A DNA stretch of 64,000 nucleotides, taken from Octopus vulgaris (Eukaryota). This document shows positions 23,177 to 64,000 of the stretch, piece after piece. The stretch spans positions 5,890,001 to 5,954,000 of the forward strand of contig OX597834.1 of the NCBI GenBank assembly GCA_951406725.2. The letters are read 5' to 3'. A program made the position numbers and the translations under genes. How positions within the stretch are numbered: position 1 is the stretch's first letter; each line of letters opens with the position of its first letter. The notes below the pieces were generated by a model that was given only the letters and a program-made list of their open reading frames with translations, searched no databases and was not told where the DNA came from.

Positions 23177-23668
23177 TTAGAAACGGTTAAGTTTTGGCTT
23201 ATATTTTTCAATGAAGAAGGTTTCCTTGTTTAATCTAACTTGTGTTGGTGTTCCAATGGCACATTGATAGAATGGAAAGATTACAAATTGTGGTAGTAGT
23301 TGTTTTGCGCATTTCTCAATATGTTCACTAAAGGGTATCATTCTGTATTCTAGGAATGCAATCTGTTGTCGATGCAGAGCGCATCTGCATCTGAGCGATA
23401 ATCCCGTTGACCCTATGTAGTTTTGGTGGCAGCCCGAGCATCTTATGACATAAATTAGGTTTACTGAAGCACAAGTAAAATTTGATTTGATTTTGAATTT
23501 CTGTCCCTCTTTGAAGAGGAATTTCTGATCCTTCTAGAAGGTTTGGGCATGTTGCGCAGTTTGGTCTACCACATTCTTTTCACTTTTGCATCCGTTATTT
23601 CAGAAAACAATTTTGCCTTTGTGACGAACTTTTTTTAGTGCTTTACGTTGTTTGTAGCTTTTAATAAG
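23177..23668 (-). pseudogene. Penelope-like retroelement C-terminal Zn-knuckle plus GIY-YIG endonuclease (5'-truncated, frameshifted)
   Basis: 23521->23177 reads FLFKEGQKFKIKSNFTCASVNLIYVIRCSGCHQNYIGSTGLSLRCRCALHRQQI...SEHIEKC...RLNKETFFIEKYKPKLNRF* (114 aa; LIY..C..C..YIG.T); upstream frames give CGRPNCATC and LIKSYKQRKALKK. Confidence 0.9.
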
Positions 23669-32399: not shown

Positions 32400-32448
<49 letters not shown>

Positions 32449-32478
32449 CAAGAAAAAAGCAACAAGAATGGATTAGTT

Positions 32479-32569
32479 TTTCAGTACAATTGTTTCATAC
32501 AAAGACTAGCTTTATTAAAAGCTGCAAATATTGCAGCAAATACAAGTGTCCCGTACTCATCAGCCAAAA
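32479..32569 (-). ncRNA. Type I hammerhead ribozyme, complete core (paralog of 55681-55771)
   Basis: Reverse: ttttgg CTGATGA gtacgggac ... gtctttgtat GAAA CAATTG TA ctgaaa; stems I and II pair with G-U wobbles. Confidence 0.78.
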
Positions 32570-32859
32570 CACATATGAGTTCTCCAAGCATCCTAGTGGG
32601 TGAGGCTACACTCATGAAGTATCGAAGATAGTTCTATTAAAAGCAAATTTAGATTGTAAGCAGACTTCCAAAGTTCTCTAATGATGCACAGTCTTATAAC
32701 AGGCTTTAAAAAAGCTTTTTAGCTTCACAGAAAAGGTGAATCCATCCATAATGTAGGTGCAATTACTGGAGATATGAGGAGATATTTCTTTATATATATA
32801 TATATATATGCCTACATTTATGTATGAATGCTCCTAATGGTTTCCTGGACTCTGTAGCT

Positions 32860-38429: not shown

Positions 38430-39743
38430 AGGCACAAGGCACAAAATTTCCAAGGAGGGGAGCAGTCAATTAGACTGACTCCAGTATGCAACTGGTACTT
38501 AATTTATCGACCCTGAAAGGATGACAGGCAAAGTCAACCTTGGCGGAAATTGAACTCAAGATTTAAAGACAAATGAAATACCTATTTCTTTATTACCCAC
38601 AAGGGGCTAAACACAGACAGGACAGATAAATGGATTAAATCGATTATATCGGCCCCAGTGCGTAACTGGTACTTATTTAAGGTGGAGAGCTGGCAGAAAC
38701 GTTAGCACACCAGGGGCGAAATGTTTAACGGTATTTCGCTTGTCGTTACGTTGTGAGTTCAAATTCCGCCGAGGTTGACTTTGCCTTTCATCCTTTCGGG
38801 GTCGATGAATTAAGTACCAGTTACGCACTGCGGTCGATGTAATCGACTTAATACCTATGTCTGTCCTTGTTTGTCCCCTCTATGTTTAGCCCCTTGTGGG
38901 TAATAAAGAAATAGGTGCTTTTTTAATCGACCCCGAAAGGATGACAGACAAAGTCGACCTTGGCAGAAATTGAACTCAACATTTAAAGACAGGAAAGATA
39001 CCTATTTCTTTACTACCCACAAGGGGCTAAACACAGAGGGGACAAACAAGGACAGACAAACGGATTAAGTCGATTTCATCGACCCCAGTGCATAACTGGT
39101 ACTTAATTCTTCGACCCCGAAAGGATGAAAGGCAGAATTTGAACTCAGAATGTAACGATAGACGAAATACCTATTTCTTTACTACCTACAAGGGGCTAAA
39201 CATAGAGGGGACAAACAAGGACAGACAAACGGATTAAGTCGATTTCATCGACCCCAGTGCATAACTGGTACTTAATTCATCGACCCCGAAAGGATGAAAG
39301 GCAGAATTTGAACTCAGAATGTAACGATAGACGAAATACCTATTTCTTTATTACCTACAAGGGGCTAAACATAGAGGGGACAAACAAGGACAGACAAATG
39401 GATTAAGTCGATTATATCGACCCTAGTGCATAACTGGTACTTAATTCATCGACCCCGAAAGGATGAAAGGCAGAATTTGAACTCAGAATGTAACGATAGA
39501 CGAAATACCTATTTCTTTACTACCTACAAGGGGCTAAACATAGAGGGGACAAACAAGGACAGACAAACGGATTAAGTCGATTATATCGACCCTAGTGCGT
39601 AACTGGTACTTATTTAATCGACCCCAAAAGGATAAAAGGCAAAGCTGACCTCGGCTGAATTTGAACTCAGAATGTAGCAGCAGACGAAATACCGCTAAGC
39701 ATTTCGCCAGGTGTGCTAACGTTTCTGCCAGCTCGTCACCTTA
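38430..39743 (-). mobile_element. Family B SINE head-to-tail multimer (including three 169-bp units) with a nested plus-strand copy (38681-38913)
   Basis: cgaccccgaaagg at 39112, 39281 and 39450; recurring junction gacgaaatacctatttcttt; single head at ~39690-39743. Confidence 0.92.
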
Positions 39744-41525: not shown

Positions 41526-41564
41526 GGTTTCTGACGAAGAGCTAAGCTTGAATGGTTAAAGACC
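41526..41564 (+). ncRNA. Minimal hammerhead-like motif, GAAA box mutated
   Basis: ggttt CTGACGA a GAGC taa GCTT GAAt ggtta aagacc. Confidence 0.5.
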
Positions 41565-44654: not shown

Positions 44655-45120
44655 AATTATTTTCCTTGCATTTTTTTCTCTTCCAAAGTCTTTCAGAATT
44701 TTATCTACACTGAAACTCCTGCTAATTTCAGAGTCGATGAACATAATTGCTAAACTGTTCCAACGTTCTTGCTGAATTGATCTCAAGTAAGTTTTGACCA
44801 ATTTCAGCTTGGAAAAAACTTATTTTTCTCAAGATGTCACAGTCACCCAGATTGTCAAGAAAATCTGGAGAGCAATAAAAGAAATTTGGAAATGCAGTAG
44901 ACCAGTTGTTGTAAGCAAGGAATTCAGTTTTCTGGTTAGCTTTAATCTTTGATGTCAAAATTGGATTTAAAGCCTCCATTTCGTCACAAAGCATGCATCC
45001 ATCTTTATCAACTAGTTATAGGATATTAACTTGATCTTTTTACTCTGTTGCTTTAACCTCTGTCAATACCACTTCCTGATCTACTGCACAATTTCTTATA
45101 GTGTCCTGGAAGAGGTCTTT
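44655..45120 (-). pseudogene. hAT transposase C-terminal dimerisation domain remnant
   Basis: Across frameshifts: STAFPNF../IALQIFLTIWVTVTS*E../FSKLKLVKTYLRSIQQERWNSLAIMFIDSEISRSFSVDKILKDFGREKNARK, matching hATC FPN...LRI.LT.PVT.AS.ERSFSKLKLIKTYLRSTM.QERL..LA. Confidence 0.85.
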
Positions 45121-45189
45121 AAAATTGTACAAAAGGCAAAAAAATAATCTTTATACTTTTGCAATTGTTTAAACCACGGTTCAAGTATT

Positions 45190-46030
45190 GCAGTGCATTA
45201 TCAACCACTTGATTGAAACATTTAGTAGACGTGCCCATTGCAAGGACCCTATTAGGCATGTTACTGATCAGATCACAAATATTCTCTTGAGAAATTTCAT
45301 GCCAATTTCAAGCAGTAATCTCAAAAGATCTGGCTTTGAGGATGCTTTCTTGTTCGTTTTCCAAAGTGTCCTGTCCATTATGCTCCAGAGATATTCAATA
45401 GGGTTCACATCTGGTGACTGGCTTGGCCATGGAAGCTTTTTAATGCCATTCTCTTCCAACAAATCTTGGGTCATTTTAGCCATCTTCCATAAATAGTCTT
45501 CTATAATCGTTTCTCCATTGGAGAAGACTGGAATGCATCCTTTCTGCAAAATGGACATATTTATCTGAGATTATGTTTCCCTCAAACTCCACCATCTCTG
45601 ATTGACCATTGTTCCAAATTGCTCCTCAGGCGATCACAGAATAGCCACCACGTTTCAATGTTGGCTGAAATATTTTTCATGTGAAATTCTTGATCACAGT
45701 TTCCAAACCCACACTTAACCACTGTCAGAAAATATAGCAGATTTAGACTCATCAGAGAATATGCCAGTGTTCCAAAATGCTAGTGCCTCTCCACCATCTC
45801 ACTGGCCCAATCTGTTCTCCATTTGATATTGGCTGGTTGCAGAGGTAGCTTCCTTCTTGCTGCTCTGCCATAGTGACCAAGTTTGTGAAGATATCTGACA
45901 GCTGTCTTAGGACTGACATCAATTCGTTCTGCTATTTCAGAGGATTATCCTCCACACTTCTTTTAGCAAAATTAAGGGTCCTGTCAGACCTGAGCGAGGT
46001 GATGCTGATTCCTTCCTCTCTCTGATGAAT
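45190..46030 (-). pseudogene. Tc1-family transposase remnant
   Basis: VSPKTAVRYLHKLGHYGRAARRKLPL; FWNTGIFSDESK; PTLKRGGYSVIA*GAIW; [18 protein letters not shown]; stops and frameshifts; the QDNA segment with the second catalytic Asp appears deleted. Confidence 0.92.
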
Positions 46031-54731: not shown

Positions 54732-55327
54732 TCAAGCCACTGACACTGGAATGGATATCTGTAGTAGTACCAAAAGCATCCTCTCCCTTCTTCATCAGTT
54801 TTTTTTTTACTTTGGAGTTACTACTCTCCCCTTAAGGGTTTGCCTGTGCGACAGACTGCAGGCTTGACATTCTGTATGTTCTTTTCTATACCTATATGGA
54901 GACCCTCCCTATCACTTAATATAAAATGAGGTAATTTTATTTTACTATCAACAGTTGCATTGAGTCTAGTTTCTCCATAACATCTTTCAAGAGCAGATGG
55001 TGTTAACTAAACTGTTGTGTAATAGAATCACATCATTTGGTGCCATAGAAATGCCAAGACTTGCATTATTTGAACATACCTTGCTTAGTGATTTATAATA
55101 ACACAACATATGTTTTACAGATTTCAGACCGTGTTTCAGCTAATTAATAAAAAATCTGGATAGATTTAGTAAGATGACTAATGCTTACCTCATTCAGTTA
55201 ATGCTTTGAATACAACTTAATACAATGTCCAGGCATTTTCAACAAAAGAAAGAAAGAGACCTCGATATTATGTAAATAGAAGAAATTTATCTGTAAATGT
55301 AATATGTGACAATTATTCCGTAGCTAT

Positions 55328-55388
55328 GATAAAACTCCGAGTTTCGGATGCTGAAGTGGAAATCCATGCCACCATCTCTTCAGTTATC
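55328..55388 (-). ncRNA. Type I hammerhead ribozyme, complete core
   Basis: Reverse: gataa CTGAAGA gatg..catc c GAAA CTC G GAG T T ttatc; stem I gataa/ttatc, stem II gatg/catc, short stem III, GUU site. Confidence 0.78.
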
Positions 55389-55408
55389 CAGCATTTTTCC
55401 GATGGCCA

Positions 55409-55469
55409 GATAACTGAAGAGATGGTGGCATGGATTTCCCCCTCAGCATCCAAAACTCGGAGTTTTATC
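55409..55469 (+). ncRNA. Mirror hammerhead copy with G12->A substitution (probably inactive)
   Basis: gataa CTGAAGA gatg..catc c AAAA CTCGGAG TT ttatc. Confidence 0.6.
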
Positions 55470-55506
55470 ATAGCTACGGAATAATTGTCACATATTACAT
55501 TTACAG

Positions 55507-55538
<32 letters not shown>

Positions 55539-55654
55539 CAATTAAGATTCAAGTCAATTCTAATGAATTCACTTGAATATGGTACTTAACTTAGATGCAC
55601 CAGAAAACTATATGGTGTTAACCAATACAGTAGTGTGGGGTGATTATAAACGAG

Positions 55655-55922
55655 AAAAGAAGCAACAAGAATGGATTAGTTTTTAGTACAATTGTTTCAT
55701 ACAAAGACAGGCTTTATTAAAAGTTGCAAATATTGCAGCAGATAAAAGTGTCCCGTACTCATCAGCTAAAATACATATGAGTTCTCTAAACATCTTAGTG
55801 GGTAAGGCTACACTCATGAAGTCTTGGAGATAATTTCATTAAAAGCAGATTCAGGTTGTAAACAGATTTCCAAAGTTCTTTAATGATGATGCACAGTCTT
55901 ATCACAGGTTTTAAAAAAGCTT
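55655..55922 (-). mobile_element. Hammerhead-bearing dispersed repeat (second copy ~32450-32716)
   Basis: agcaacaagaatggattagttt ... gatgcacagtcttat.acagg.tttaaaaaagctt shared between the two loci. Confidence 0.85.
55681..55771 (-). ncRNA. Type I hammerhead ribozyme, complete core
   Basis: Reverse: ttttag CTGATGA gtacgggac ... gtctttgtat GAAA CAATTG TA ctaaaa; perfect 6-bp stem I, palindromic stem III ACAATTGT, GUA site. Confidence 0.82.
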
Positions 55923-55940
55923 ATTATATATTTAAAAAAG

Positions 55941-55988
<48 letters not shown>

Positions 55989-57522
55989 TATGACAGGCTT
56001 CTTTCAGTTTTTGTCTACCAAAATTACTCATCAGGAGTAATAGAAGCTATAGTAGAAGCCACTTGCCCAAGGTGTCCTGCAGTGGGACTGAACCCAGAAC
56101 CATGTGATTTGGAAACAAGCTTCTTACCACTCAGCAAGCACTTCCATGCTTAATGAAGCTAATTAATTATAGTTACATATGGAACAAGGAGAAATTGTAA
56201 TCGGCTGAATTATTGATCTTGGCCTGGAAAAAAAAGGAAGACAAACGCATCATTTTAATAAAAAATAAATGGTGGACATACAATAGAGAGGGGTTCTGAT
56301 CTTTGGCAGTCATCCATCCATCCATCTTCCAAGTGCACTGTTCCAGGGAGGTCCACAAAAGCTGACTGCTCAGGCACCTCCTCCATAGGGTCCTATTGAA
56401 GTAACTTTCATTGCACTTTCCTACAGGATTTCCAAATATGACCAACTCTGGCTACAGATATTACTCAACCACCTCCTTCTTGTTCTATCTCATGGCCTTC
56501 TGCTGGCCGGCTTGGTTTGGCTTGGCTTGGCTTGAAGAATCTGTCTTACATTCCTTTCCTGCAACATTCTAACCCCATGTCTGTAGTACCAGGGTTGTGA
56601 GCTACCAGAGTGGTGTAATCATACAATCTTATCAAACCTTCTCAGCTCAGTCACACTCAATTCTTAATTATTTTAGTTAATTAAGAAATATATGTGATGT
56701 CCCTCTCCTATCTTTCTTGATCAGAATTAATTATTAGGTTTTGGTTGATTGATTTTTTCCCCTTGTAAATTTAATTCACATTCCTTGGCTTATTACAGTA
56801 AATTTGTGGACAAGTGCTGAACTGTTTGGCTTTCTTACAGCAGGCAACCCTGAGTATTTCACAGTCATCTCTTAGAATGTTCATGTACTGATTGTCCATG
56901 TTTAGTTTGTAGCAACCCGGGCACCCACACACATAAACATACATGCACAAACACACTTCCATCTCTCTCTCTCTCTCTCTGTCCTTCACTTTCTCTCTCT
57001 CTCTTGCATTTTCTTTCCCTCACTTTTCTCTCTCTCTCTTTCTTCTCCCCTTCCTTCTCTCCTCATCTCTTCCTCCCCCTCTTTCAAATAGAATACCAAA
57101 GGTTTATATTATTTGCAATTGTTTTCAAGCAATTAAGCTGTCAGCAATTTCTTCATGGCAATCTCATGACAATAAATTATTACACAGATAGCCTCTAATC
57201 CAGGAGTCATTTTAGACAAAATACAGCAGATAAATTTCAATTAGGCTCATCATTTGTTTTCGCTAATTTTACACCAATTTTCTTTTTCATTTTTTTCACT
57301 TTCTCTAATTTTCAGTTATCTTTACACACCTTGGCTGGATTTGAACACACAACAGGCTTGCACTGCACCATGAAACAATTGCATGTCTGAAAATCTTGTA
57401 TGAATGCGAAATGCCGTGAAACAAATTTATTTTTGTATTTTTTTTCTGTCTGCTTCTGTGTCACATGACACAGAAGCTGGTGAAAAATAATCCCCTGACA
57501 AAGTTTCCTATTAAGGAAGTGC

Positions 57523-63645: not shown

Positions 63646-63662
63646 TATAAGAGGAATGGAAT

Positions 63663-63773
63663 GCTTACAGCAACCAGGGTTCCCAAGCGGTCACCCATCT
63701 AAGTACTAACTAGGCTCGATGTTGCTTAACTTCGGTGATCGGACGAGAACCGGTGCTTTCAACGTGATATGGC
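63663..63773 (-). pseudogene. 5S rRNA pseudogene lacking the first few nucleotides
   Basis: Reverse: gccatatcacgttgaaagcaccggttctcgtccgatcaccgaagttaagcaac.tcgagcctagttagtacttagatgggtgaccgcttgggaaccc..tgctgtaagc. Confidence 0.93.
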
Positions 63774-64000
63774 CCCAATGCCACCTCCTTTCTCAAAGGA
63801 TCTTTGTCTTGCAACTTACATATTGAACTTTGCCAGTGTTGATGCCACATAAAAAGCATTCAGTCCACTCTGTGAAGTGGTTGGCATTTGGAAGGACATC
63901 CAGCTGTGAAAACCTTGTCAAAACTGACCTCACCTGTGCTTGTGCCATGTAAAAAGCACTAAGCCTACTTTGCTGGGTGTTTGATGTCAGGAAAAGCATC

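Follow-up and report, generated by a model that had tools for sequence, protein, structure and literature searches.

The 64,000-nucleotide stretch of Octopus vulgaris DNA analysed here (the window) carries a type I hammerhead motif on its minus strand, inside a short copy of a dispersed repeat. The features of the site, and of one related copy, are as follows.

55241..55506: inverted pair of pLTRs from another Hydra-like family, adjoining the window copy and sharing its (TA)n tract
55507..55533: (TA)n target at the 3' end, common to the pLTR copy and the adjoining element
55534..55926, minus: 5'-truncated, ORF-less pLTR copy, very likely of a Hydra-clade Penelope-like element (PLE); about 390 bp, delimited by similarity to other copies
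55910..55991: 5' junction, with a 21-nt duplication and then (TA)n
55681..55771, minus: whole type I hammerhead motif, with the core elements CUGANGA, GAAA and UH in order and helix I open-ended
55766..55771, minus: stem I 5' strand UUUUAG, 6 bp with 55681-55686
55759..55765, minus: hammerhead core CUGAUGA; position 7 is the sole site variable among 15 aligned rows
55699..55758, minus: extended helix II domain of 60 nt (9-bp basal stem, G-U closure, internal loops, distal hairpin)
55723..55739, minus: distal hairpin of helix II, UGCAA/UUGCA, pair probability 0.91
55688..55698, minus: GAA (55696-55698), then the palindromic stem III ACAAUUGU (55688-55695)
55686..55687, minus: cleavage site predicted from the hammerhead consensus, after A17 of GUA (A17 = 55687)
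55681..55686, minus: stem I 3' strand CUAAAA, partner of UUUUAG
55660..55676, minus: 17-nt block without variation among the 15 aligned subfamily rows, lying between the cut and the first 3' end
55650, minus: short 3' end used by other copies, about +35 to +37 from the cut
55534..55649, minus: optional tail of about 117 nt, up to the long 3' end; corresponds to the first part of the 5' UTR of the next unit
55607-55631 and 55547-55578, minus: predicted tail hairpins
32443..32781, minus: second, older family copy in the short-end form, hammerhead at 32479-32569; 88% identical, 23 kb away

Hammerhead numbering and consensus follow common usage and PMC4209133. The preliminary description had placed a hammerhead at 55681-55771 on the minus strand, and a 6-bp stem I, an intact core and a palindromic stem III are all read there. 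Re-reading the strand gives the same predicted cut, between 55687 and 55686, the G-U that had been named as the closing pair of stem II is confirmed in the sequence, and the inner UGCAA/UUGCA hairpin is present at 55739-55723. The insert had been given as 39 nt; from GUACGGGAC to GUCUUUGUAU it measures 41 nt, and 39 is obtained only if one more A-U pair is counted.

Closure of helix II by G10.1-C11.1 is a common hammerhead feature but not an obligatory one. In the alignment this pair is G-U in 12 of 15 rows and G-C in the other 3. Since the G-U closure is fixed among copies whose frames are open, it represents a trait of the family rather than decay. Both this closure and the GUA cleavage triplet have precedent in Hydra elements: by hand count in File S2 of PMC8557442, 11 of the 25 Hydra families listed there have A at the cut and 2 of 25 close helix II with G-U.

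A hammerhead descriptor scan gave 29 distinct matches in 448,697 bp (the window plus loci that had been picked for carrying the hammerhead repeat and that partly overlap) and 0 in the same sequence reversed. Genome-wide, the family pattern is matched exactly 1,517 times (751+766), its reversed control 0+0 times. Note that these 1,517 are hammerheads and not insertions, many of the 100 listed being diverging pairs. Because both counts stand against zero in the reversed controls, the hammerhead is not a chance match. Rfam returned no hammerhead among the best 150 of 178 rows for the window, and a local Rfam scan with E up to 10 gave 5 matches, none of them a hammerhead. The motif at 55681-55771 was probably missed because its helix II is 60 nt long.

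The neighbouring pLTR pair belongs to a family with 1,664 candidates in the genome, a helix II of 31 nt and the stem III ACUCGGAGU. Its minus-strand core at 55383 is intact, and its plus-strand core at 55414 has AAAA in place of GAAA. Again two 3' ends are found in this family, at about +42 and +109. The inverted repeat at 55285-55512 was considered as a MITE and rejected, since it is the inverted pLTR pair and scraps of a Hydra-like ORF lie beside other copies.

Elsewhere in the window, a GIY-YIG fragment with CxxC inside its core (23180-23533, minus) comes from a different PLE clade. Fragments that by their motif look like a Tc1/mariner-like transposase lie at 44731-45570. Two 5S rRNA-like hits that exceed the gathering score (1584-1702 and 63662-63780, minus) are probably 5S-derived repeats. 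At 38962-39641 a 169-bp unit stands four times in tandem, 95% alike, with an inverted copy adjoining, and a degenerate short hammerhead-like motif at 41531 (plus) resembles one at L080:895(-).

Copies, full-length relatives and clade

Similarity to other copies covers 55507-55926 of the window, with (TA)n on each side. The window copy shares 99% identity with copies dispersed over other contigs and is therefore a recent insertion. This speaks against a ribozyme domesticated by the host for a role at this locus, an explanation for which no supporting feature was found there. In addition, the window's 64 longer non-repetitive open frames resemble pieces of repeats or transposons by eye, a comparison that leaves short exons aside. 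We regard domestication as highly improbable. The window copy has no partner hammerhead within its own insertion. The nearest same-strand family member lies 23 kb off and the stem III at 55383 does not match, which makes a role for this copy unlikely. The lone fragment is probably inert, a dead-end product.

A 341-base query against the window's own 2.8-Gb genome gave 3,229 candidates, the best 40 of which are 96-100% identical over the query. Other copies reach further upstream, to the 3' region and the ORF of a PLE, and their 5' ends are staggered. At locus L031, one strand carries RT, a CxCX5C linker, GIY-YIG, a 1.3-kb 3' region, the hammerhead and then (TA)n, with an inverted copy at the truncated 5' end; its Pfam matches (RVT_1, E 0.0065; GIY-YIG, E 0.0011) both lie below the curated cut-off. 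About 350 nt upstream of this hammerhead, a long pyrimidine tract ending near CAG (L031:4870-5035) looks like a splice acceptor. The window copy itself is short and ORF-less, as would be expected of a non-autonomous hammerhead element, retrozyme-like or SINE-like, that is not the end of an autonomous PLE. The upstream continuation of other copies to the PLE ORF, with staggered 5' ends, contradicts this. No unit of 170-400 nt was found repeated in tandem, and the repeat lacks the short non-coding monomers in tandem that mark non-LTR retrozymes. A non-autonomous origin has hardly any likelihood left, and the copy is better read as the end of an autonomous PLE.

Full-length relatives were reached with an endonuclease query, for which the best 150 of 14,394 candidates were scored and 20 loci examined. 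Six of them (L051, L052, L054, L055, L056 and L058) have a hammerhead on each side of an open frame of 941-984 aa, the two hammerheads being 4,623-4,713 nt apart; the frame of L058 has a stop near its end. The full-length ORF of about 955 aa encodes RT plus GIY-YIG, with asparagine-rich inserts. Thus the features of an endonuclease-bearing (EN+) PLE are all present: an ORF with RT and GIY-YIG, pLTR flanks, 5' truncation, inverted 5' copies and an optional tail. The nearest full-length copies belong to sister subfamilies 80-90% identical to the window's own, of which the copies examined are truncated or broken. Between the 5' and 3' pLTRs of one element there are 0 differences in four of the six, 2 in L052 and a deletion in L058. 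This identity was considered as a means to tell a circular from a linear template and was dropped, as it is compatible with both. Contigs of four runs, which we guess to be RNA, match parts of a full-length copy; ends, strand and level are not resolvable in them.

The clade was assigned by motifs. According to section 11 of PMC8557442, the Hydra clade is defined by RWK, DKT, CxCX5C, CxxC and CxH and by the lack of CCHH. In the frames of L051-L060, RWK appears as RRIRWKTY and DKT as PADKTGN. The family ORFs also have YRDD, the CxCX5C linker CKCRIKSKC, CxxC as CQLC and CxH as CVH. Their GIY-YIG is C-terminal with a single C and no CxxC in its core, so CCHH is absent. (TA)n serves as insertion target, as in the Hydra clade, and the unit of 4,623-4,713 nt departs from the tendency of Hydra elements to stay below 3 kb. 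In two full-length family proteins Pfam gives nothing at E 0.1, and the assignment therefore rests on these motifs and on a match by eye that covered the published N-terminal 400 aa. It is almost certain that the hammerhead belongs to the pLTR of a Hydra-clade Penelope-like retrotransposon. The family is distinct from the published Hydra-1_Obim, which has 709 aa and a different hammerhead sequence. The Naiad clade, first suggested by the RT fragment and the (TA)n targets, is excluded by domain order: the N-terminal GIY-YIG, DKA and CCHH are absent. In the 3' ends of Naiad_Obim and Naiad_Ovul given in PMC8557442 File S5, a 'half core' is seen, with stem I and III strands, GUA and GAAA in scrambled order.

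Fold conservation and pairing of two hammerheads

The 15 rows of the structure alignment were hand-picked from 51 distinct sequences and represent subfamilies together with sister family B; note that they amount to few related subfamilies and few independent lineages. In these rows the named hammerhead structure is paired in 95.5% of 381 cells, versus 35-50% in slid controls, and 0 of 500 shuffles reach this value. Two-sided changes occur at 3 of the 26 hammerhead pairs, a number that 65 of 500 shuffles also attain, the rows being few and related. Stem I is paired in 100% of the scored cells of the 15 subfamily representatives and has one two-sided change. The distal hairpin of helix II shows a C-G/U-G/U-A series at one pair. 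All 15 rows agree in the core bases except at the free position 7, and the flanks vary.

Such invariance of the catalytic bases next to variable flanks would not be expected if the fold were kept for a non-catalytic job, such as binding of the RT or folding of the RNA close to the priming sites, and barely cleaved in vivo. Fully sequence-distinct families also retain the same core. For such a job one may cite that every genomic copy examined retains an uncut hammerhead and the bases downstream of it; a ligated circle, however, would likewise yield intact copies. The G-U closure departs from the usual G-C, competing folds are predicted, and insertion of PAc, the Poseidon element of Anolis carolinensis, is independent of cleavage (PMC11167929). 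On balance we consider a non-catalytic fold improbable.

Stem III points to how cleavage might be arranged. Pairing of its 8-nt palindrome is retained through subfamily changes. The third, inner pair is A-U in 8 rows, G-U in 4 and G-C in 3, and the innermost is broken in 2 of 15. The inner pair fits two strands, because a single strand can form it only around a 2-nt loop. In a monomer, stem III has only 2 bp and a pair probability of 0.02. For the tandem, the double-hammerhead fold has -27.8 kcal/mol, 8.5 better than the -19.3 kcal/mol of two monomers; the unconstrained minimum of the tandem is -30.8 kcal/mol. The preliminary description had held that the motif suits a double-hammerhead dimer, and the 2-bp monomer stem III, the retained palindrome and the better double fold bear this out. 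Palindrome covariation thus fits the double-hammerhead pairing that is already known for such elements, as judged from the aligned sequences. In full-length family members helix III is short and palindromic, and a second hammerhead lies on the same transcript. Other hammerhead families in the same loci have palindromic stem III sequences that differ from this one.

Folding models also predict competitors. With flanks, the monomer has -17.9 kcal/mol in its active fold versus a minimum of -24.0 kcal/mol, and nearest-neighbour folding of the isolated hammerhead RNA misses the active shape (z = -0.15). RNAalifold predicts a rival fold that sequesters the hammerhead core. For families A (the window's own) and B, though not apparently for family C, folding predicts a hairpin that sequesters GAAA and the cut; it was considered as a switch and rejected, since the active fold accounts equally well for its changes. 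Pairing of the distal hairpin with the invariant block downstream, as a pseudoknot, was also set aside: it is possible, but solely one-sided changes were seen by eye.

A hammerhead acting as a monomer would need a tertiary contact between helix II and stem I, or a protein that holds the 2-bp stem III. It is true that the helix II extension is structured and retained in three families, that the partners in cis are 4.6 kb apart, and that the PAc hammerhead of the anole cleaves solely with its protein (PMC11167929). Covariation of the inner palindrome pair, however, would be needless for a monomer, stem III forms with a probability of only 0.02, and no contact between loop and stem I with a two-sided change was found in the alignment. 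A monomer is therefore unlikely. Dimer-dependent cleavage by hammerheads of this family is probable. The reading that we prefer for the whole, at a probability of roughly 0.72, is a pLTR hammerhead of a Hydra-clade PLE that would cut after GUA only as a stem III-paired dimer, likely with the help of the element's protein.

The long helix II is not confined to family A. Its span is 60 nt in family A, 57 nt in sister family B and 55-58 nt in the distant family C. Families B and C (994 and 1,467 genome candidates) lie on the same strand downstream of Hydra-type endonucleases (68-74% and 33% identical to A); in two copies of family C examined there is no CxCX5C linker. Against base shuffles, the helix II extension has z values of -4.3 in B and -5.5 in C, and in family A they run from -1.1 for the window copy to -2.3, two other copies lying at about -2.2. 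More type I hammerheads, all distinct in sequence, were seen at L056:9255(+), L056:1695(-), L056:7746(+), L050:401(-), L058:2169(+), L022:2817(-), L108:1738(-), L115:2654(+) and L077:3242(-). These nine have a helix II of 43-60 nt and a mostly palindromic stem III, and several have (TA)n shortly past the cut. No account of a long-helix-II hammerhead in octopus PLEs was found in the literature searched. In a 2026 repeat annotation of Octopus vulgaris, 31 recently active Penelope-like families are listed (PMC13282606), and its main text mentions neither hammerhead nor Hydra nor ribozyme.

3' ends, proposed mechanism and known systems

Copies end at one of two 3' positions, counted from the cut: mostly +35 to +37, or +149 to +162. 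The window copy carries the long 3' end. In all 18 diverging pairs of two-armed insertions (18/18), one end is long (tailed) and one short (untailed). These pairs were retained from 26 multi-end rows after one duplicate (L034), 3 convergent or mixed-family rows, 3 direct repeats and the window were dropped; 12 of them are reachable with a long-end query, and the other six were retrieved solely through the endonuclease query. Ten of the pairs bear an ORF; in 7 of these the ORF arm carries the long end, in 3 the inverted arm.

The tail hairpins are paired in 92.4% of 432 cells, with two-sided change in 2 of 27 pairs, which 239 of 500 shuffles reach; the modelled hairpins are only weakly suggested. 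The invariant 17-nt block at 55660-55676 is a candidate protein-binding site. In family A a similar motif, UCUU-N1-2-UUGCUU, precedes both 3' ends (55660-55676 and 55535-55548 of the window, minus). The window copy has one change in the second instance, and in family B the resemblance of the second is weaker. This motif is a candidate mark of both RT start sites.

We propose the following mechanism. In the full-length transcript, the hammerheads of the 5' and 3' pLTRs would pair through stem III and form a double hammerhead, from which an RNA of unit length could be released and perhaps circularised. The RNP of the element would nick (TA)n and prime reverse transcription inside its own RNA, at +36 or +154 from the cut. 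Because reverse transcription would start inside the RNA, past the cut, new copies would retain an intact hammerhead. Early termination would leave fragments such as the window copy. More tentatively, and with less than even odds in our estimate, the structured helix II module of 55-60 nt in several Hydra-clade families of this genome may gate cleavage or dock the element's protein, and each insertion may arise from two coupled priming events, one for each target strand, with distinct starts 117 nt apart. In the coupled-priming reading two-armed insertions have exactly one tailed end because the two strands must use different start sites.

The family offers a test system. It is a Hydra-clade family that is young and high in copy number, has full-length open frames and includes subfamily variants that carry natural compensatory changes, its long helix II is overlooked by descriptor and Rfam searches, and its start sites, 117 nt apart, are easily scored. 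It could be used to probe the job of PLE hammerheads in vivo, be it dimer cleavage, circle formation or protein-assisted folding. This is a question left by PMC4209133, PMC8557442 and PMC11167929.

PAc is the one reconstituted PLE (PMC11167929). Its hammerhead needs protein, cleavage is dispensable for insertion in vitro, and zero RNA reads end at the hammerhead cut. As in the octopus family, two 3' ends bound an optional tail downstream of the hammerhead, the tail of PAc lying between two internal RT start sites; the targets are AT-rich, and an AC-rich stretch stands by the first 3' end. However, PAc belongs to another clade, and its sites are adjacent and within the ORF, whereas those of the octopus family are 117 nt apart in the 5' UTR. 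In vitro the start site of PAc is equal on both strands, while two-armed insertions of the octopus family always carry one of each end.

The spike-moss PLE-X1 hammerheads also have a long loop 2 (28-35 nt) and are flagged noncanonical (PMC8557442, File S2). These elements differ in being endonuclease-less and targeted to 28S rDNA, and their hammerheads are without a palindromic dimer-type stem III (PMC8557442).

Metazoan PLE hammerheads are dimer-dependent, with low activity and a palindromic stem III (PMC4209133; for the dimer type also Lunse et al., as cited in PMC6765202). The octopus hammerhead shares with them type I, a very short palindromic helix III, one hammerhead per pLTR, the predicted double hammerhead, and the predominance of solo, truncated copies (PMC4209133). 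It differs in that helix III has 2 bp with a 4-nt loop rather than none, in a 6-bp helix I and in a much longer, multi-segment helix II (PMC4209133).

The closest likeness is to the Hydra clade of PMC8557442 (Hydra-1_Obim, Penelope-13_HM, Penelope-2_NV). RWK, DKT, CxCX5C, a C-terminal GIY-YIG without CCHH, CxxC, CxH and (TA)n targets are shared, and so is a type I hammerhead on the sense strand, close to the 3' end and with a palindromic stem III. An optional tail of 30-40 bp on one inverted pLTR is known (PMC8557442, PMC3846280), as are asparagine-rich inserts and long 3' spacers in PLEs (PMC3846280). Compared with PMC8557442, the octopus unit is 4.6-4.7 kb against generally <3 kb in Hydra, and the ORF of about 955 aa with asparagine-rich inserts stands against 709 aa in Hydra-1_Obim. 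For helix II the span is 55-60 nt, where none of the 25 listed Hydra families exceeds 26 nt, and the tail is about 117 nt long against 30-40 bp. A hammerhead is expected in this kind of element, and the departures, namely the long helix II and the long tail, are quantitative.
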